This document shows, piece after piece, positions 1-7,970 of a DNA stretch of 25,479 nt (the first letter of the stretch is position 1; each line of letters opens with the position of its first letter). This stretch comes from an archaeon (lineage in GTDB: Archaea > SpSt-1190 > DYHY01). Where the stretch lies: assembly GCA_043803745.1 (NCBI GenBank), contig JAZDJS010000047.1, positions 1 to 25,479 of the forward strand, read 5' to 3'. The position numbers and the translations under genes were made by a program. The notes under the pieces were generated by a model, which did no database searches, had not been told where the DNA came from, and saw nothing but the letters and a program-made list of their open reading frames with translations.

Positions 1-2
1 TT

Positions 3-515
3 CCCGCCGGATTATCAGTTAACGATTTGAAAGGCGTTGATTTGATAGATTTGGAAAAAGCCGTAAAAAAGCTCGTAAAAAAAGCTGATTTCGTTCTTCT
101 TGATGCGGCTGCCGGCCTTGGCAGGGAAGCAATTGTGACAATGAAAGCGTGTGATGAAGCGATTTTCGTTACAATTCCGCAGGCGCCGTCAGCAGTTGAC
201 ATAATGAGATGCCACAAACTCGTACAAAAGTATGGACGAACCGCGCTTGGCGTAGTTGTTAACATGGTCCATAACAAGGCCCATGAATTTTCCTCCCTTG
301 AAATCGAAACCCTTACAGATCTTCCAGTTATTGCTAAAATTCCATTTGACTACAACATACACAAAGCACTTTCAGAACGGAAGGTATTGCTCTATTATCG
401 GCCAAATTCTAAAGCAATGGCAGCATATCGGAAAATAGGTGCTTGGCTTTGCGGGGTTGATTACAAGGAACAGTCGGTTCTGGCGAGAATTTCAAATTGG
501 CTCAAATATAGATAG
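3..515 (+). CDS. minD: MinD/ParA-family ATPase, C-terminal part (5' end outside the window)
   Basis: The frame is open from the window edge (PAGLSVNDLKGVD...). It has a MinD-type Walker B/switch region DFVLLDAAAGLGREA, the motifs LGVVVN and LPVIAKIPFD, and a C-terminal amphipathic helix (SVLARISNWLKYR) like a MinD membrane-targeting sequence. Confidence 0.85.
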   Translation, partial: PAGLSVNDLKGVDLIDLEKAVKKLVKKADFVLLDAAAGLGREAIVTMKACDEAIFVTIPQAPSAVDIMRCHKLVQKYGRTALGVVVNMVHNKAHEFSSLEIETLTDLPVIAKIPFDYNIHKALSERKVLLYYRPNSKAMAAYRKIGAWLCGVDYKEQSVLARISNWLKYR

Positions 516-588
516 GATTAGAGTAAGCCGAGCGCCAGCGAACGGTTGACACGCCCTCGGCAATCCGTCGAAAAGACACGGATTCCCT

Positions 589-1754
589 TTCCGACACATC
601 AACTTAACCTGTCGAAGGGCACTTCAGATGGCTTCCTAGCAGCCAATTCAGTTGACGATTCTCCAGCCACCTGTCGGAACTGTCCATCCTGTCGAGGGAC
701 TTTCCAGCAGGTCGACTGTACAATTCTGTCGTGCCCGTTCCAGAGAGGCTGATTTTTTGTAAAACAGTTCTATACCTTTAACCCTCCTTATTGGTTCTTC
801 CAATAGTTGGAACTTTCAGAGTTTTTCCATTTGAGGTTTTCGGCGCAGAAAGCGATTCTCGAAAGCACTCAGTTCGCTTCGTTCCCTCGTCACAATCGGA
901 AGTTTCCGGGTCAGTAGGACTTGTCCCAATTTCAATCAAGTCAAGCGACCGGTTGGTTGAGAATGTGTCGAAAAAATCACTTTTCCAGGCCAAAATACCA
1001 ACATTTAGTCGTAACATAAGGATAAATAATTGAGCTTTTCAATAGTCCTAGGAGTTCCAGGAGCCAAATACCGCAATGTCAGAAACTCAAAGCTTTCTTA
1101 GAAAAGTTGCTGGATTTGACGACCTTCAGAGGGAACTGACGGAACACAAGACTGCCGTTTTGGCACGTTTCGATGAACTTGACCGACAGGTAAAACGGGT
1201 CGGGGACTCTGTCGCTTATGCAAATCAGCAGCTTCTTGAGCTGAGGGAAAAGCTTGAAAACGTCGAGATTTTGATGAAACGGCTTGAGCCGAAAGAAACG
1301 AAGGAACACAGAGCAAGGAAGGAGCACAATTTCAACGAGGTTGAGGAGAAGATTCTTGAGGTAGTAAGGAAAGGAAGCCAAGTTAGCGCTTCGGAAGCCT
1401 CTTTATTATCTGGCCTTTCCCGCACAAGAGCAAGCGAAATCCTCAACGAACTTGCAAGGAAATCGATAATCCGGAAGGAAAAGAAGGGAAAAATCAGCTT
1501 TTTCATACTCAACTCCGATGTGTCGGAGAGGGCTTCAGGAGGACCGAAGGAGACTAAATGACGCCGTTTCAGAGAAACCCACCCAAATCCCCAGACCTGA
1601 CGGAACTAAAGAAAGTCGTTTCTTCGGAAATACCCCAAACCAAACCCCCCCAACTGAAGAAACCTCCCGAAGAACTAGCTGAATTTGTCCTGAGACGAGA
1701 CAAAATAGAGGCCAAATCTCTGCTGCCTGAAAAAGGTCCCGACACATCGGAGTT
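589..1754. repeat. Cluster of TGTCG(G/A) boxes, including two copies of a 16-bp palindromic-core site
   Basis: CCTGTCGR at 608, 670, 688 and 1183 (reverse). ATGTGTCGR at 591-599 (reverse), 963, 1518 and 1739-1747 (reverse). AACTCCGATGTGTCGG (1511-1526) recurs exactly as its reverse complement at 1739-1754, with a CCGA-N4-TCGG core. Confidence 0.65.
1076..1561 (+). CDS. Coiled-coil plus winged helix-turn-helix DNA-binding protein
   Basis: N-terminal heptad-rich helix (LDRQVKRV...LLELREKLENVE). C-terminal EEKILEVVRKGSQVSASEASLLSGLSRTRASEILNELARKSIIRKEKKGKISFF is a typical wHTH. Confidence 0.8.
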   Translation: MSETQSFLRKVAGFDDLQRELTEHKTAVLARFDELDRQVKRVGDSVAYANQQLLELREKLENVEILMKRLEPKETKEHRARKEHNFNEVEEKILEVVRKGSQVSASEASLLSGLSRTRASEILNELARKSIIRKEKKGKISFFILNSDVSERASGGPKETK

Positions 1755-2178
1755 TTCTGCAAAGGTAATTTTGCTTGGAAATCTTGTCCAGGAAATTTCC
1801 CTTGATTCTCAGATGAAAAGGAAGGATGAGCTTGAAAACGCTCTTTTTGTTCTTGAGAAGGAACACCTTAACGGGCTTGCTTCGGATAGCAGTTACTTTG
1901 ATATCAAGGCAAGGATAATAAAAGAGCTGAAAAAACTTGATGAGAAGTTAGCCTTAATTTCGGCATATTCAGAAAAGAACAAGAATTTCAAATCAACTGT
2001 TGCTGAGATTGAGGAACTTGTTGAACCGCTTGTCCAAGCTGCCAAGAAAACCGAGGAAACCGACAAAGTCGAAGGGACCCTTTCCGAAATTACCAAGAAA
2101 TATTTGGCAGGGGAACTTGGAGAGGAAAATTATTACGATTTGAAGGCCAAACTGGCAGTCAAGCTCAGCTCGGTCTAA
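1558..2178 (+). CDS. Helical/coiled-coil protein with two SHOCT-like repeats
   Basis: The start overlaps the stop of the wHTH gene (ATGA). Repeats LEKEHLNGLASDSSYFDIKARI and ITKKYLAGELGEENYYDLKAKL fit the SHOCT pattern L..G.i.eeeY...K..l. Confidence 0.65.
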   Translation: MTPFQRNPPKSPDLTELKKVVSSEIPQTKPPQLKKPPEELAEFVLRRDKIEAKSLLPEKGPDTSEFSAKVILLGNLVQEISLDSQMKRKDELENALFVLEKEHLNGLASDSSYFDIKARIIKELKKLDEKLALISAYSEKNKNFKSTVAEIEELVEPLVQAAKKTEETDKVEGTLSEITKKYLAGELGEENYYDLKAKLAVKLSSV

Positions 2179-2281
2179 GCGCCTCTTGTTGACCCTCGCG
2201 CCTTCAGGCGCGGGAGGAAACGGCGCTTGACATGAACTACCGCCTATATTGACCCTCGCCCATTCATGGGCAGGTAGTTCA
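2177..2281 (-). mobile_element. Twin-hairpin element resembling a non-autonomous IS200/IS605-type (PATE/REP-like) element
   Basis: Two units 60 bp apart share TTGACCCTCGC and a 5-bp hairpin with a TTCA loop (GCGCC/GGCGC and GCCCA/TGGGC). Each is enclosed by its own stem (AAGCGCC/GGCGCTT and TGAACTACC/GGTAGTTCA). The minus strand reads AACTACC-hairpin...TTCCTCCC-hairpin, like IS200/IS605 left and right ends. Confidence 0.55.
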
Positions 2282-2353
2282 GTTTTCTGAGTTTTTTGGT
2301 GCGACCATTCAGAGACGAATTGCATTAATATCAAGTCCGCACAGTTTAGAAAC

Positions 2354-3412
2354 ATGCTGTTCTCCCCAACAACCTTTGCAATTGGCGCAATACTGAAAAT
2401 TTTCGTCCTTCTTGCCCCGCTTGCAGCAAGCGTCCTGCTTTCCTGGCGGTATGATTCGGTTTCCGAGAAAAAAAAGGGCCGCATCCTTTTCTTCGGTTTC
2501 TCCATATTTCTCGTTCTTCACTTGATTTTCCTTGATGCGGTTATGTTCCGCGAAATTGACTCGCCAATGCCCGCAGAATTCAAAAGCCCGATTGAGCTGA
2601 TTTTCTCCTATCTTTTCCTCCTTGCGGCAGTTGCCGCCCTATATTTCTGGTCCTCGACGCTTGAAAACCGGCTTTTCGGACAGCCCCTTTTCAACAGGCA
2701 TTTTCTCGTGCTTATCCTCGCTTCCGGAGCGGGCGCCCTTGTTTTCGCAAGCCAGTTCGGGAGCTTACCGATTGAAACGGTCTCGAGCTCCGCCCTCTAT
2801 ACAGTTTCCTGGATTCTTGTCCCAGCGATTTACGTTTCCCTTTACAACATATATTCAAAGTTCAAGACGAAATTCTCCAAGCTCGTCCTGCTTGGCGCCC
2901 TTGTGAGCGTTTCAAACCCGGTAATTTTCACATTCGCCGTCAAGTCCTGTTTCCAGGCGGGCGCCCTTTCATTTGACACTTTCTATTCCCTTCGGGGAGT
3001 CGCAATGGCGGTTTCAGTTGTCGGGGCCGCCCTTGCAAGCGTCCCCGCGTTTTCTTTCCTCAAAGACCTTCTTATGCAAATTGAAGACCTCCGCATCCAG
3101 CAGAAATCGGTTTTCTCGAGATTTGTCCACGAATTCGTTTTCAGATATTCCAGGATAATCGGAAAGGTGAGCTGGACGATTTACGAAAGCGCTCTTGCGG
3201 ATTTCGGGAAAGCCCCCGATTGGGAACTGGATTCCCTCCCGGAAGCAAAGAAGCGCGATTTCCTGGGCGCCGCATTTTCCAAATACCTTTCCCTGACCGG
3301 GCTCATTTCCAAAAGAATCTGCTGGGATGCATTCTCCTCCTCAGCGGAATTCAGGAAAAATCGGCCTGTCAACGCAGCCGTCCTTGCGTTCACTGAGCGG
3401 AAATATCAGTAA
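2354..3412 (+). CDS. Seven-transmembrane membrane protein with a C-terminal cytoplasmic helical domain (putative sensor)
   Basis: Seven hydrophobic segments in about aa 8-236. The soluble ~110-aa tail contains YSRIIGKVSWTI and YLSLTGLISKRI, similar to the 4988..5338 protein. Confidence 0.75.
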   Translation: MLFSPTTFAIGAILKIFVLLAPLAASVLLSWRYDSVSEKKKGRILFFGFSIFLVLHLIFLDAVMFREIDSPMPAEFKSPIELIFSYLFLLAAVAALYFWSSTLENRLFGQPLFNRHFLVLILASGAGALVFASQFGSLPIETVSSSALYTVSWILVPAIYVSLYNIYSKFKTKFSKLVLLGALVSVSNPVIFTFAVKSCFQAGALSFDTFYSLRGVAMAVSVVGAALASVPAFSFLKDLLMQIEDLRIQQKSVFSRFVHEFVFRYSRIIGKVSWTIYESALADFGKAPDWELDSLPEAKKRDFLGAAFSKYLSLTGLISKRICWDAFSSSAEFRKNRPVNAAVLAFTERKYQ

Positions 3413-4775
3413 TTTCCATCCCTGGCTTGTGCTTGTCAAGCACCGCCTGCCGCTCTTCCGGGGAATACTGCCTTAGGTCAAGCTTAAGCTCGAACGCAGT
3501 CACCTCGCCCCCGCCAATTTGCAGGAACGCATTAACCGGGGCGTTCTCAGGAATCCCGTATCTGTCGCTTCCGGCTGTCGAGTATTCTACGAACCGCCTG
3601 TAGATTCCGGTCCGCTCCTCCGGAGAAAGCTCCCGGGTTGTCTCAAGGGTTGCGCTTATTGCGCGCGGCACGCCCCCTTCAGTTTCATGGCGCGCAGTCC
3701 CTAGTCCCGTCAGAATGTCCGGGAAATCCGAGGCAAGGGCCGCTTTCACATCCTGGAAGAATTTTGCGGGGTAGTGTTTTATCGGTTCGTCAGCTTTCCT
3801 GCCGACAATCTCGATTCTTGGGGAAACGCGTTCCCCGCACGGGCAGGAATAGTCAAAAGTCCCAACATCCCCGGTTTCGCAATTGAGAGCTGCATATTCC
3901 GCAGGCTTCAGATGGCTCATAACAATTTCGCCGGTTCCTTCGTCAAGGAAAGCCCGCTTTATCGTGCTCAGATGGTTGTGCCCGAGGGTGCAAGGAGTCG
4001 TCCAGATTCCGTGCTCAATCGAGTTTATCGCGTTAATAACTGGAATCCCGAGTTCTTCCTCCAGGAATTCCTTGTCAGCCGCAGGCAGCGCGCTTCCACC
4101 CATGTAAATTCCCCGGAGCTTACTCCCGCCCCCGGCAATGAGCTTGCGCGCGTCAGGATGCCTGAGGAAAGCGGGTCCGACCATTGTGTAAGTGAAAATG
4201 AATTCAGCTTCCGGAAGGATTCGCATGAAAGCGCCGAAATCGTAAGTGTCAAGCCAGCTTGCGTCGGCAAGCCCATAGAGCTTGCAAAGCATCGGGATCA
4301 GCCCCTTCAAGGAGCTTTTTTCCGGGACAAGGACAGTCATCTTGTCCTTGCGGCCGATTCCCAGGGCGTCAAAATAGACGTCCATTGCCCTTGCTTCGCT
4401 CCCAAGGTTGAGAATTGAGAACGGCCTCTCCTTTTGGGTTCCCGTTGTCCCGCTTGTGTGCGCGGATTTCAAGAGGAATTTCGGTATGTTTTTCCTGGTC
4501 AGGCCGGGCATCCGTTCCCGCAAGTCATCCTCAGTTACCCTGAATCCGGACGAATCAAGCTCGGCAAAGGAACTTATCTGCCGCGGGTCGGTTACTCCTA
4601 GCGCCCGGAGTTTTTCCGGAACGAGGTCGGTTGTTCGCCAGTAGAGCGGGAGCACATTTCTCAAAGCAGCATCCTGCGCAGCTTCCAGTTCCTCAGCGGT
4701 TCCGTACGGGAATCGCGGCGCTGAAAATGCGAATCCCTTTTCCAATTTTTCCGGCTTTGAATCTCTTTTCACCAT
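3390..4775 (-). CDS. Phenylacetate-CoA ligase / coenzyme F390 synthetase-like adenylate-forming enzyme
   Basis: ANL-family motifs: HTSGTTG P-loop, YMGGSAL, and ETGDVG...CPCG...IEIVGRKAD hinge. It overlaps the 7TM gene convergently by 23 bp. Confidence 0.8.
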   Translation of the reverse strand: MVKRDSKPEKLEKGFAFSAPRFPYGTAEELEAAQDAALRNVLPLYWRTTDLVPEKLRALGVTDPRQISSFAELDSSGFRVTEDDLRERMPGLTRKNIPKFLLKSAHTSGTTGTQKERPFSILNLGSEARAMDVYFDALGIGRKDKMTVLVPEKSSLKGLIPMLCKLYGLADASWLDTYDFGAFMRILPEAEFIFTYTMVGPAFLRHPDARKLIAGGGSKLRGIYMGGSALPAADKEFLEEELGIPVINAINSIEHGIWTTPCTLGHNHLSTIKRAFLDEGTGEIVMSHLKPAEYAALNCETGDVGTFDYSCPCGERVSPRIEIVGRKADEPIKHYPAKFFQDVKAALASDFPDILTGLGTARHETEGGVPRAISATLETTRELSPEERTGIYRRFVEYSTAGSDRYGIPENAPVNAFLQIGGGEVTAFELKLDLRQYSPEERQAVLDKHKPGMEITDISAQ

Positions 4776-4945
4776 TTCGCCTCAAAAACCCCTTTGTTTC
4801 CGGAAGAAAATTCCAAGAATATAAATATTTCCGACAAAAAATCAGTAATTTTTACGAAATCTGAGTGGGAAACTTAGCTCCCTCCGAAGGAATTGCGAAA
4901 GCCCGGTAAAAAAAAGGAAAGTTCTAGCGGGAACTGAAGGCAAAT

Positions 4946-4963
4946 AGAAAGAAACTTTAAATA
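4946..4963 (+). promoter_or_regulatory. BRE/TATA promoter of the Roadblock-GTPase-KaiC operon
   Basis: Purine run followed by TTTAAATA (4956-4963), about 25 nt before the ATG at 4988, consistent with a leaderless transcript. Confidence 0.55.
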
Positions 4964-4987
4964 CACTGGAGAAAGTAACTGGAACTG

Positions 4988-5338
4988 ATGGCAGTTTCCC
5001 CTGAGGGCAGGAAAGCGTTCTATGATTCGGTCTGCGCCGAAATTGTCAAGGAAGTCGCGAGGATGATAGGCACCACTGCGAACACGCTTGCGGGAACGGT
5101 CCAAGGGATAATACTCAAGAAGGAATCGTTATCGACGTCCGACGCCTTCGGCCCGAAGAACCTTGAGGAACTGGTCAACGTTTACGTCAAGATAATAGGG
5201 CCGGTTGCCAAGACGCTTGCGGGCCGGGCTGTCGTGCGCGTCAAGGAAGTTGGCGAGGATGAGGAACGTGCGGAGCTCCTCCCGAACTGGCTTGCCGAAA
5301 GCGTCAAGGCCCTTTCCGGGTCTGAAGGAGCGCATTGA
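4988..5338 (+). CDS. Small alpha-helical protein (possibly NitrOD5-like signalling domain)
   Basis: First gene of a tightly packed operon. It has an internal repeat, VARMIGTTANTLA / YVKIIGPVAKTLA. The family assignment is from memory and unverified. Confidence 0.65.
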   Translation: MAVSPEGRKAFYDSVCAEIVKEVARMIGTTANTLAGTVQGIILKKESLSTSDAFGPKNLEELVNVYVKIIGPVAKTLAGRAVVRVKEVGEDEERAELLPNWLAESVKALSGSEGAH

Positions 5339-5341
5339 ACG

Positions 5342-5752
5342 ATGGCGGAAGAACCCGGCGGGAACAACTCCCCGGAAAGCATCGAGGGGAAACTCGAACA
5401 TCTCCTTTCCTTCCTTGAAACTCTTCCGGAAATACATGCAACAGCCGTAGTGAGGCGAGACGGTTTGATGATAGCGTCCTCACTGCCGAAGACGGTCGAT
5501 TCCCGAACTTTCGCGGCAATGTCCGCGGCAATTGTCGGGACCGCTGAAACCTCCGCCACCGAATTGCAGCTCGGGCGCTTCCTCCAAGTGATTGTCGAGG
5601 CTGAGAAGGGGAAAATGATTGCAACGGGAGCCGGAAGCGTCGCGATTCTCATCTGTCTTGTCACTGAACGGGCCAACCTCGGGCTGGTCCTCCTTGAAAT
5701 GGGTAGGGTTGCCCGCCAGGTTGCCGATACCCTGGAGGGCTCCGCGGAATGA
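5342..5752 (+). CDS. Roadblock/LC7 (MglB-like) protein 1
   Basis: Motifs AVVRRDGLMIASSLP, AAMSAAIVGTAE, QVIVEAEKGKMI and NLGLVLLEM are typical of Roadblock proteins. Confidence 0.92.
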   Translation: MAEEPGGNNSPESIEGKLEHLLSFLETLPEIHATAVVRRDGLMIASSLPKTVDSRTFAAMSAAIVGTAETSATELQLGRFLQVIVEAEKGKMIATGAGSVAILICLVTERANLGLVLLEMGRVARQVADTLEGSAE

Positions 5753-6894
5753 GCCCCGCCCTGAAAACGGGAATCCCGAAGCTTGACGAACTCCTTCTCG
5801 GGGGAATTCCGGAAGGCGCAGCAGTGCTGATAACCGGGCTCCTCGGCGCGGACATCGAGACATTCGGGCAGCAGATTGCGTCGAAAACCTGCGAAAGCGC
5901 GCAGTGCCTTTATTTCGTTTCTGACAAGATGCCCTCCCTCGTCAGGGAAAGAATGGGCGCCCTCAAGTTCCCCTCGACCGACAAGCTCCATTTCGTTGAC
6001 GGATATTCCGCTTCAATCGGCATGTCGACAATTGAAGAATTCCATACAAAGAAATCCGGCGAGATCGAAGGGGTAATTTCCGAGGCGGCGAAGAAAGTCT
6101 TCCCGAAGCTCCTTGTATTCGACTCGCTTTCATCCAGCAATTTTGCGAACGGAAAGTCCTTTTGCGAAAGGGTAACCGACCTGAGCAGGCTTGCAAAATC
6201 TTTCGGGGCTGTGGCGGTTTTCCTCTTCCCGCGGCTTGGCGAGGAGGACGAGGCCTTTGCGAAGGAGCTTTCGAAATCTTTCGAGGAAACGATTTCCATC
6301 GATTCCGTCGCAGAGAACTTCATTGAGCGGAGCTTCTACACCGTTTCGACAAAGGGAGAAATCCATGTCCCGTTCAAGGTCACCGCAAGCGGAATCTCCC
6401 TTTACGTCCCGAAGATAATCGTCACCGGTCCATACCATTCCGGAAAATCGACGTTCATACACAAGATTTCGACAAAGGCGATTTCAGTCGACCGCCTCGG
6501 GACAACGGTCGCTCTCGACCATGGCTGCGTTGAATACAAGGGCTTCTCAGTCGACCTTTTCGGGACCCCCGGTCAGGAGGCGTTCAATTTCATCCTTCCG
6601 ATAATCTCGAGGGACACCTTCGGAGTGATACTGATAGTTGATTCGAGCGACAGGAACTCGTTTCCCCGCGCAAGGGAGATGATCGACCTCGTCTCCGGCG
6701 GACGGATTCCCTTCGTCGTTGCCGCGAACAAGAGCGACCTTCCCGGGGTCCTCGTTCCCGATGAGATACGGGCGCTGCTCACGCTCGGGACGAACGTTCC
6801 AATAATCAAGACGGTTTCGACAACAGGGGAAGGGATTTTCGAGACCCTTGTCGCGCTTTTCGACATAATAACGGGATTCCGGAGGTGGAACTGA
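5749..6894 (+). CDS. KaiC/RAD55-like domain (degenerate Walker A) fused to an MglA/CvnD-like small GTPase
   Basis: N-terminal KTGIPKLDELLLGGIPEG and LVFDSLS, with Walker A read as GLLGADIE. C-terminal G1 GPYHSGKST, G2 TTVALD, G3 FGTPGQ and G4 NKSD. Confidence 0.9.
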   Translation: MSPALKTGIPKLDELLLGGIPEGAAVLITGLLGADIETFGQQIASKTCESAQCLYFVSDKMPSLVRERMGALKFPSTDKLHFVDGYSASIGMSTIEEFHTKKSGEIEGVISEAAKKVFPKLLVFDSLSSSNFANGKSFCERVTDLSRLAKSFGAVAVFLFPRLGEEDEAFAKELSKSFEETISIDSVAENFIERSFYTVSTKGEIHVPFKVTASGISLYVPKIIVTGPYHSGKSTFIHKISTKAISVDRLGTTVALDHGCVEYKGFSVDLFGTPGQEAFNFILPIISRDTFGVILIVDSSDRNSFPRAREMIDLVSGGRIPFVVAANKSDLPGVLVPDEIRALLTLGTNVPIIKTVSTTGEGIFETLVALFDIITGFRRWN

Positions 6895-7274
6895 AGAACA
6901 TGGGACTGGATGAAAAACAATCCGAACTTGAGACAATACTTGCCCGGCTCGCCGAGTTCCCTGACATTTTGGGGTCGGCAATAGTGAGGAAGGACGGGCT
7001 GATGATAACTTCCTCCCTTTCCGGGAAGCTTGATTCGCGCGCAATTGCCGCAATGGCTGCCGCGATAGTCGGGACCGCGGAAACCTCGGCATCCGAGCTC
7101 GGGCTCGGGAAATTCCCGCAGGTGATTGTCGAGGCTGAGAAGGGGAAGCTGATCGCAACCGGAGCAGGAACCCAAGCGCTCCTTGTCTGCATGGTGCGGG
7201 CAACGGGAAACCTCGGGCTAGTCCTCCTTGAGATGGGGCGCGCTTCGGAAAAGATTTCAAACAAGCTGGAGTGA
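6885..7274 (+). CDS. Roadblock/LC7 (MglB-like) protein 2 (start may be the ATG at 6900)
   Basis: Motifs AIVRKDGLMITSSL, AAMAAAIVGTAE and NLGLVLLEM. It is a close paralog of 5342..5752. Confidence 0.92.
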   Translation: MELKNMGLDEKQSELETILARLAEFPDILGSAIVRKDGLMITSSLSGKLDSRAIAAMAAAIVGTAETSASELGLGKFPQVIVEAEKGKLIATGAGTQALLVCMVRATGNLGLVLLEMGRASEKISNKLE

Positions 7275-7283
7275 GGGACCAAA

Positions 7284-7970
7284 GTGCCGCTGAAAACGCT
7301 GATGACGAAGATTGACGAGCTTCTCGGAGGCGGACTTCCGGAAAAAAGCACCTTCCTCCTCAAGGGACCCCCCGCTTCAAAGAAGGAGTCGATACTCTTC
7401 CAGTTCCTTCACGCCGGAAAGAAATCCGGAAATCCGATAGCATTTGTTGCAACCGACTCATCTCCCGCCGAAATCGAGAAGCGCGCCATTTCCCTCGGGC
7501 TCGACCTCTCCTCGACGAAGTTCGTCGACTGCTATTCCTGGGCGCTCCAGCAGAGGAGTTCAAGCAGGCCCGGAGACATAATTGTCCCCGGACCCTCTTC
7601 CCTCAACGAGCTTTCAATTGCAATCTCAAGGGCCCTTTCCGAAATCAACAAGCCGGGGGTCCCCTCACGGGTTTCCTTCCAGTCCCTTTCAACCCTCGTC
7701 CTCTACAACAATCCCGACATAGTCTTCCGGTTCATCCAGATAATGGGGGCCCGCCTCAAGGCTTCCGGGGCAACGACCCTCTTCTCAATTGAAGAGGGGA
7801 TGCACGAGGAGCGGGTTTTCACAACGCTCGAGCATATTACCGACGGGACAATCGAGTTCAAGTCCGAGAACGGGGCGGACTTTTTGAGGATCCCCCGGCT
7901 TCCGGCAGGCAAGCCGATTTCCAACTGGATCCAGTTCGAGGCAACCCCTTACGGAATCGAGATAAAATAG
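7284..7970 (+). CDS. Single-domain KaiC/RAD55-like protein, probably catalytically inactive
   Basis: Motifs IDELLGGGLPEK, FVDCYS, SLNELSIAI and EGMHEE...LEHITDGTIEF. Walker A is GPPASKKE and Walker B is VSFQSLS (D to Q). Confidence 0.88.
   Translation: MPLKTLMTKIDELLGGGLPEKSTFLLKGPPASKKESILFQFLHAGKKSGNPIAFVATDSSPAEIEKRAISLGLDLSSTKFVDCYSWALQQRSSSRPGDIIVPGPSSLNELSIAISRALSEINKPGVPSRVSFQSLSTLVLYNNPDIVFRFIQIMGARLKASGATTLFSIEEGMHEERVFTTLEHITDGTIEFKSENGADFLRIPRLPAGKPISNWIQFEATPYGIEIK

Follow-up and report, generated by a model that had tools for sequence, protein, structure and literature searches.

What keeps an exact 16-bp sequence and its inverted copy in two adjacent, nonhomologous genes, beside a cluster of short repeated boxes and a gene for a MinD-type ATPase? 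The question is raised by positions 516-1754 of the archaeal contig JAZDJS010000047.1 (assembly GCA_043803745.1), the whole 25,479-nt stretch of which was analyzed here as the window. The window is the entire contig C47 of a 1.23-Mb genome in 51 contigs, designated G000. An original prediction from the sequence had interpreted the TGTCGR boxes and the 16-bp palindromic site as a candidate centromere-like system, served by the ATPase, a coiled-coil winged-helix-turn-helix (wHTH) protein and a SHOCT-like protein, with plain autoregulation or an origin as alternatives. Our analysis points to two overlapping signals, an interpretation to which we give about an even chance of being correct. The boxes would be operators of the winged-helix protein, and the 16-bp repeat would form a long-range mRNA helix coupling the translation of two genes.

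Four orthologous loci were compared, and the orthologous spacers discussed below were drawn from them. The GTDB family of the window, a family of Micrarchaeota, is represented by G000, by G001 from the same genus and by G003 from the same family, while the metagenome contig L025, near-identical to G001, provides a fourth copy of the arrangement. Searches for further orthologous DNA yielded two genomes, both already included, and one metagenome contig. In all four loci the order is a long minD gene, a short minD gene, a spacer, the winged-helix gene and a gene for a 206-aa protein. In the window, with these genes on the plus strand, the 3′ part of the short minD gene (170 codons, 3..515) is followed by the non-coding spacer (516..1075, 560 bp), the gene for the 161-aa coiled-coil and winged-helix protein that lies downstream of it (1076..1561) and the gene for the 206-aa protein (1558..2178). 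The last two genes share a 4-nt ATGA stop/start overlap (1558..1561 in the window), which was found in all four loci.

The paired arms of the 16-bp repeat

The 16-mer AACTCCGATGTGTCGG at 1511-1526 (arm B) recurs as its exact reverse complement at 1739-1754 (arm C), as had been predicted, and it has no further copies in the 1.23-Mb genome. Perfect inverted repeats of at least 15 nt with a gap of 20-500 nt occur only twice in the whole genome, and the B/C pair is one of them. In the G003 and L025 loci, it is the sole perfect inverted repeat of at least 12 nt. Read on the plus strand, arm B encodes NSDVSE in the disordered tail of the winged-helix protein and carries a TGTCGG box at 1521-1526, and arm C encodes PDTSEF in the variable N-terminal region of the 206-aa protein; both arms fall in weakly constrained regions of the proteins. 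The other genomic repeat of this size lies on contig C48 (57736-57848), with arms of 17 nt and a gap of about 80 nt.

Pairing between the two arms was found in every locus. It is perfect in the window (16/16) and again perfect, with a different sequence, in G003 (17/17), while L025 has 19 bp including one G.U pair and G001 has 16 of 19 positions paired. When all 40-nt windows of the loci (6.5-14 kb) were searched for the best duplex partner of arm B, arm C was returned in all four cases (z = -4.7, -4.4, -7.0 and -5.5). The table of pairs was produced by a script with arm B codon-aligned; aligning the whole B..C segments with MAFFT left the C arms out of register. In this table, 68 of the 72 helix cells (18 columns in four loci) are paired, and the columns comprise eight with compensatory changes, six invariant ones and four varying on one side. 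The compensation can be synonymous, as with GAT>GAC in arm B and ACA>ACG in arm C, or can change the amino acids of both products, as with SDVS>SGMS in one protein and PDTSEF>GIPEF in the other. Because of this covariation, both chance and coding constraint were excluded as explanations of the B/C pair, and the earlier statement that protein coding does not account for the 16-mer was thereby upheld.

The core of the 16-mer, CCGA-N4-TCGG, had been proposed as the site of a dimeric wHTH protein. This proposal did not survive the comparison: arm B of G001 and of L025 lacks the dyad, and that of G003 retains just part of it. What is conserved in the 16-mer is the mutual pairing of its arms, not a palindromic protein site. 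A miniature inverted-repeat transposable element or other insertion comprising the 244-bp B..C segment was also considered and ruled out, the 16-mer having no other copy and the arms being kept by compensatory change. As to an inversion of the DNA, no recombinase gene was seen among the neighboring genes viewed.

The two arms very probably lie on one transcript, since the winged-helix and 206-aa genes overlap by the ATGA in all four loci. In predicted folds of this RNA, the pair probabilities of the B/C helix are about 1.0 in G000, L025 and G003. The Shine-Dalgarno region of the downstream gene (1544..1555, plus strand, with GGAG at 1549-1552) is predicted to pair with 1614-1627, a putative anti-Shine-Dalgarno segment on the same strand spanning about codons 19-23. 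In each of the four loci, the minimum-energy fold joins the Shine-Dalgarno region to a homologous stretch some 55-70 nt farther downstream, and its probabilities of being unpaired are mostly between 0 and 0.2. Five distant loci lacking the 206-aa gene offered no consistent partner across the junction between the regulator gene and minD; hence, the helix was considered a feature of the two-gene operon of the window's family.

The following mechanism would accommodate these folds. In the bicistronic mRNA, arm B, formed by the last codons of the regulator gene, would pair with arm C, 180 nt into the next gene, and the resulting helix would close a domain containing the ATGA overlap and the hairpin over the second Shine-Dalgarno sequence. 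A ribosome finishing the regulator gene would melt arm B and then the hairpin, exposing the overlapping start. Since the fold would be opened by the terminating ribosome, the second protein would be made only when the first is translated, that is, by translational coupling. Pairing in RNA rather than in DNA, together with the coupling itself, is the most likely interpretation of the modeled structures.

The TGTCGR boxes and the winged-helix protein

All eight TGTCGR boxes reported for 516-1754 were located at the predicted positions, namely 591 (minus strand), 610, 672, 690, 966, 1183 (minus), 1521 and 1739 (minus), and five of them lie within the spacer. The density of the hexamer is 2.28 per kb in the window, compared with 1.80 per kb for the genome as a whole, and at least five copies per 560 bp were counted in 559 of 60,152 sliding windows (0.93%), several windows holding 6-7. 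Since this fraction of windows reaches five, the bare hexamer count is a weak signal, enriched without being unique. For the longer word YGTGTCGR, the four copies within 1240 bp form the sole such cluster in the genome; the two places with three copies are a coding tandem repeat and the interior of a gene. The 10-mer CCGACACATC has four genomic copies, and three of these are at 591, 1517 and 1739. The pattern CCGA-N4-TCGG is not enriched: the window has two copies, a number reached by 26 of 100 shuffles.

Within the spacer, the boxes are irregularly arranged. The extended box A on the minus strand (585..600, GATGTGTCGGAAAGGG) is identical to the arm B region 1517-1532 at 15 of 16 positions, and its ATGTGTCGGAAAG recurs in the spacer of G003. 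On the plus strand, a TGTCGA box at 610..615 is followed by a TGTCGG box at 672..677, whose TGTC is invariant in the four-locus spacer alignment, by TGTCGA at 690..695 and by TGTCG(T) at 727..731, the last forming a series spaced 18-19 bp with the boxes at 672 and 690 and a GGTCGA at 709. All four loci share the TGTCG of box D (TGTCGA, 966..971, plus strand), which is located some 50 bp upstream from a TATA-like element. This element, GATAAATAA at 1021..1029 on the plus strand, is itself invariant in the four loci and probably serves the winged-helix gene as its TATA box. In G001, L025 and G003, a box directly abuts the invariant GATAAATAA.

The spacer had been described as free of any credible gene, and the orthologous spacers (523, 523 and 364 bp in the other three loci) agree with this, since they have no conserved open reading frame and contain stop codons in all six frames. 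A small open reading frame was ruled out by the same all-frame stops. The G+C content of the spacer is 0.47 in G000 and 0.34-0.35 in G001 and L025. No match was obtained in an Rfam scan of 1-3000 at E ≤ 1, no tRNA was found in a scan of the window, and Tandem Repeats Finder reported nothing for 400-2400. When the spacer was compared with the genome using blastn-short, only chance matches of 13-24 nt were returned.

The most conserved block of the spacer is 742..832, with AACAGTT at 763-769 and TGTACA just before it, at 717-722. RNAalifold found no meaningful consensus structure for the central conserved block on either strand (-0.94 and -0.84 kcal/mol). The dyad-like words TGTACA and AACAGTT (often as GAACAGTTC) are conserved in the spacer, and both rank near the top for k-mer enrichment upstream of distant members of the family (L026, L032 and others). 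A second factor might bind them, or they might belong to a composite operator.

The TGTCGR boxes are conserved cis-elements. The four orthologous spacers together contain 23 TGTCG words in 1970 bp, or 11.7 per kb, compared with 2.99 per kb elsewhere in the loci. In the spacers of the window's family (364-560 bp), the boxes number 4-8 and point both ways, some of them being clustered at a distance from the promoter. In five distant loci, four from another Micrarchaeota family and one from another phylum, 20 TGTCG words were counted in the 750 bp upstream of the homologous gene, compared with 1.85 per kb around, and the boxes recur at about -120, -90 and -50. An unbiased k-mer count was then made on 31 upstream regions, comprising four Micrarchaeota loci and 27 of the 30 best-scoring loci of a second DPANN phylum (three were dropped because their start codons were uncertain), with the loci of the window's family left out. 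TGTCG (68 seen, 11.3 expected) led the 5-mers and TGTCGA (48 seen, 6.6 expected) the 6-mers, with the TATA words ranking below them.

The assignment of 1076..1561 to a coiled-coil wHTH protein was borne out by an AlphaFold model and by profile matches. The model, of moderate quality (predicted local distance difference test score, pLDDT, 68; predicted template modeling score 0.29), contains a helix at residues 3-70, a three-helix bundle at 88-136 and a disordered tail at 143-161 (pLDDT <50). All eight members of the family tested matched the TrmB profile PF01978 at E ≤ 0.01, with a best value of 9.5e-8, and two of the eight matched PF01022 (6.1e-9); the window's own protein scored 21.8 bits on PF01978, below the cut-off of 25.6. 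A profile search of the PDB gave weak matches to Lrp, DP-2, BlaI and MarR (E 0.018-0.15), and a Foldseek search of the model against the PDB returned nothing at E ≤ 0.001. The motif SRTR[A/S]SE.LN, the putative recognition helix, is invariant throughout the family. Close relatives are rare: a search of 5.8 billion clusters yielded 7 proteins, and one of 1.84 billion yielded 2 representatives at E ≤ 1e-10. Weaker homologues of 24-33% identity were found by a family-profile search in four genomes of another Micrarchaeota family and one of another phylum, and in the second phylum a family member was present at E ≤ 1e-8 in 57 of 121 sampled genomes.

A conserved word at the promoters and a conserved recognition helix are what autoregulation by the winged-helix protein predicts, and we suggest on this basis that the boxes are its operators. 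The operator would have the form of about ATGTGTCGRAA and would be bound by the 1076..1561 protein. Since the boxes cluster at and upstream of the winged-helix promoter, the protein would control its own operon, and in relatives with minD directly after the regulator gene the same promoter would drive minD too.

Several observations weigh against this combination of operators and a coupling helix. The helix is carried by only three independent lineages, G001 and L025 being near-identical, and in G001 it has three imperfections, is absent from the lowest-energy fold in longer context and costs 3.4 kcal/mol. The pair counts are fitted to the structure to the extent that arm C was located by complementarity. 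Box A (585-600) can pair with 1517-1532 as well, in G000 only. On the side of the operators, a distance of 290-430 bp separates the upstream cluster at 591-731 from the TATA-like element, more than is usual for a simple operator, and in the second phylum no box was found within 150 bp upstream in 4 of 12 loci linked to minD and in 5 of 18 unlinked ones. Two further points concern the level at which the pairing acts. Wobble on the sense strand is uninformative for RNA versus DNA, with four G.U cells and three C.A cells, and arm B is a good box in all four loci, as is arm C in G000 and G003, by which a DNA-level role of the pair is possible.

These last two points are also the strength of the alternative that survives best, according to which arms B and C are inverted high-affinity DNA sites that would flank the second start, bind a dimeric or tetrameric winged-helix protein and form a loop or a roadblock, the concerted evolution of the arms stemming from the protein that they share. 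The near-identity of box A to arm B in G000 speaks for it as well. We nevertheless consider it unlikely. Arm C of G001 and of L025 no longer has the TGTCG core (it reads TGCTGG or TGCCGG) and is no box, yet its match to arm B persists over 9-13 flank positions shared by no other box, and since a coreless arm still matches through its flanks, a nucleic-acid helix was preferred over paired protein sites. Moreover, the side of the core toward which the identity continues differs between G000 and G003, and the spacer boxes of the same genome lack these extensions.

The link to minD and the surrounding genes

Both ATPases are archaeal MinDs, in agreement with the MinD-like label that the window's fragment had received. 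The 170-aa fragment in the window scored 116.6 bits on TIGR01969 (minD_arch) over model positions 82-238, and the short and long G001 orthologues scored 218.1 and 213.5 bits, both above the curated cut-off of 201.75. The 5′ part of the short gene on contig C33 encodes ISGKGGVGKTT, a deviant Walker A motif that includes the signature lysine (xKGGxGK[ST]). In the tail of the short MinD (...QSVLARISNWLKYR), hydrophobic residues follow an i, i+3/4 pattern, as judged by eye. The best family was MinD, and the match to ParA_partition (NF041546) reached 52.6 bits against a cut-off of 180.

A minD gene adjoins the winged-helix gene in all seven confident Micrarchaeota loci, three of the window's family (G000, G001, G003) and four of a sister family (G005, G007, G010, G011); three weak matches (E about 1e-7) had no minD nearby. 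In the window's family, the spacer separates the winged-helix gene from the minD genes upstream of it, and the winged-helix gene has a putative promoter of its own, outside the minD operon. In the sister family the regulator gene comes first, its stop overlapping the minD start in G005 and minD following within about 55 bp in G010, G011 and G007. The regulator stop overlaps the minD start in G044 of the second phylum as well. Among the 30 best-scoring loci of that phylum, the set on which its linkage and box counts are based, minD is directly downstream in all of the best eight but beside the gene in 12 overall, and the other 18 have no minD within 1.5 kb. Thus, the conserved linkage expected by the original prediction stood for the confident Micrarchaeota loci and failed for most of the second-phylum set. 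Boxes numbered 34 in the 18 upstream regions without minD and 24 in the 12 with minD; since the density is the same, the boxes follow the regulator gene and not minD. Consequently, plain autoregulation, which had been listed as an alternative, accounts for the second-phylum boxes better than a MinD-specific centromere. An autoregulated regulator that is co-expressed with MinD in one subfamily would fit these sequence data.

This pattern bears directly on the centromere-like interpretation, in which the box cluster is the centromere-like site and the winged-helix protein the adaptor from DNA to membrane-bound MinD, the whole being a positioning or segregation module that also autoregulates like the plasmid par loci. 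The unbroken linkage in the confident Micrarchaeota loci, the regulator stop that overlaps the minD start or is within about 110 bp of it in the sister family and G044, the minD genes directly downstream in the best eight second-phylum loci, and the long spacers of the window's family with their boxes in both orientations and a cluster far from the promoter are all in its favor. It would also provide what MinD seems to lack, since the available part of one report describes archaeal MinDs as having no known MinE or MinC partner, and ParA and MinD proteins as generally needing an activating partner (10.1101/2020.04.03.021790). The equal box density at the 18 loci without minD argues against it, as do the lack of a second cluster of the extended motif elsewhere in G000, an ATPase of the MinD type and not the ParA type, and the position of the regulator gene outside the minD operon in the window's family. 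A complex prediction for the G001 short MinD with the winged-helix protein gave a score of 0.00 (mark, 0.32), which speaks neither for nor against it. On balance we regard the centromere-like interpretation as improbable, somewhat more so than the paired DNA sites.

To our knowledge, no chromosome segregation machine has been recognized in DPANN archaea. A bolder conjecture, which we place a little lower again, is that DNA positioning in DPANN archaea might be based on MinD, not on ParA, with membrane-bound MinD acting through a winged-helix adaptor that grips TGTCGR clusters. The adaptor would then be the long-sought partner of archaeal MinD and, in the window's family, would be held at a fixed ratio to a second coiled-coil protein through the mRNA helix. 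A replication origin in the spacer, the other alternative of the original prediction, is very improbable, for although the spacer is long, non-coding and A+T-richer with repeated short motifs, the two orc1/cdc6 genes of the genome are located elsewhere, on contigs C15 and C21, no repeated element like the origin recognition box and no other spacer copy was found in the genome, no skew inflection occurs within the window, and the boxes track the regulator gene across phyla.

The 206-aa protein, whose N-terminus is variable, has two conserved helical motifs and matched no Pfam or NCBIfam family. The SHOCT-like label was dropped, as PF09851 had no match at E ≤ 5 in three orthologues. The protein is limited to the window's family, being present in 3 of 17 genomes of the phylum, the three with the winged-helix gene. 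In BLASTP, its motifs weakly resembled the long MinD's tail (E 0.022 and 0.061), and an Atlas lead for it was at chance level (0.79). A protein of about 630 aa shares its C-terminal helical motif (E 1e-6 to 6e-4; G000 C33:1821-1982, G001:C5:89961-90125 and G003:C29:1584-1865). Since the C-terminal motif resembles the tail of the long MinD too, it may be a common docking motif.

The short minD gene of the window is cut by the assembly. The end of C33 (19168-19417) reads ...SGMKVIP and the window starts with PAGLSVNDLKG, the G001 match being ...SGMSVIPAGLSVNDLKG; since the split gene reads across both contig ends, C33 and C47 were taken as neighbors. The longer minD paralogue (open frame 457 aa) lies just upstream on C33 (17871-18584). 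A hairpin at 559-587, with 10-nt arms (GGCAATCCGT and ACGGATTCCC) and a 9-nt loop, begins 44 bp past the minD stop and may be the minD terminator; the segment is absent from the other three loci.

Just past the stop of the 206-aa gene lie two G+C-rich hairpin copies (2188-2221 and 2249-2274), 81% alike and 60 bp apart, of the form TTGACCCTCGC...loop TTCA...GCG/GGG and followed by T-runs. The 11-mer TTGACCCTCGC has no further genomic copy. Given the T-runs and the position after the gene, the hairpins are probably an operon terminator or a 3′ stabilizer. Farther downstream (2354-7970), the window encodes a multi-pass membrane protein, an adenylating enzyme, a 116-aa protein, a Roadblock/LC7 protein and a KaiC-small GTPase fusion. 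In G001, the last three of these genes directly follow the 206-aa homologue and the first two are absent.

Implications and comparison with known systems

For archaeal MinD, no partner of the MinE or ParB type is known, and a conserved DNA-binding neighbor with an identified candidate recognition motif provides a concrete pair of candidate partners and a defined DNA probe. Regulator genes of two DPANN phyla are connected by the box motif, which may represent a widespread, undescribed regulatory code in reduced genomes. In the B/C helix, selection on nucleotides appears to shape two proteins at once, changes in the tail of one being mirrored in the N-terminus of the other, and conserved coding repeats of this kind should not be read as protein-binding palindromes. 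The parts of the literature on archaeal MinD, winged-helix proteins and Micrarchaeota that were available describe neither a coiled-coil winged-helix protein linked to MinD nor a TGTCGR motif.

Autoregulated partition loci that combine a small DNA binder with a Walker ATPase are exemplified by parC/ParR of plasmid R1, the type Ib par loci and AspA-ParB-ParA of pNOB8. SegAB of Sulfolobus serves as the archaeal partition system for comparison, as far as the available excerpts describe it (PMC8682754, PMC12139799). The present locus resembles the par loci and SegAB in having a gene for a Walker-type ATPase, an adjacent gene for a putative site-specific binder and short repeated sites clustered at the promoter of the binder gene, which could act as operators, as a centromere or in both roles. 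It differs from them in that the ATPase is an archaeal MinD (TIGR01969) and not ParA or SegA, and in that the binder, a coiled coil with a TrmB/MarR-type winged helix, has no sequence link to ParB, ParR, SegB or AspA. Furthermore, the boxes here are irregularly spaced and of mixed orientation, and the binder gene of the window's family lies outside the ATPase operon.

The closest ATPases with described functions are MinD4 and MinD2 of Haloferax volcanii, which, according to the available parts of the reports, position the motility and chemotaxis machinery (10.1101/2020.04.03.021790, PMC11588486). The MinDs of the present locus belong to the same ATPase family, with a possible C-terminal amphipathic membrane-targeting helix and, as in the excerpts on H. 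volcanii, no MinC or MinE partner known. Unlike the H. volcanii proteins, for which those excerpts mention no DNA-binding partner gene, they have a winged-helix gene as a constant neighbor.

Coupling through mRNA structure is established for the coat and replicase genes of phage MS2 and for the IF3-L35-L20 and L11-L1 operons of Escherichia coli (PMC9894550). As described in the available part of that source, a segment inside the upstream frame pairs at a distance, the initiation region downstream is folded, and ribosomes on the upstream gene open the fold (PMC9894550), all of which the proposed B/C helix would share. Unlike in those systems, the 3′ arm here is part of the downstream gene, a 4-nt stop/start overlap is enclosed by the helix, and the genes are those of a cellular archaeon, with a predicted structure that is backed by covariation.

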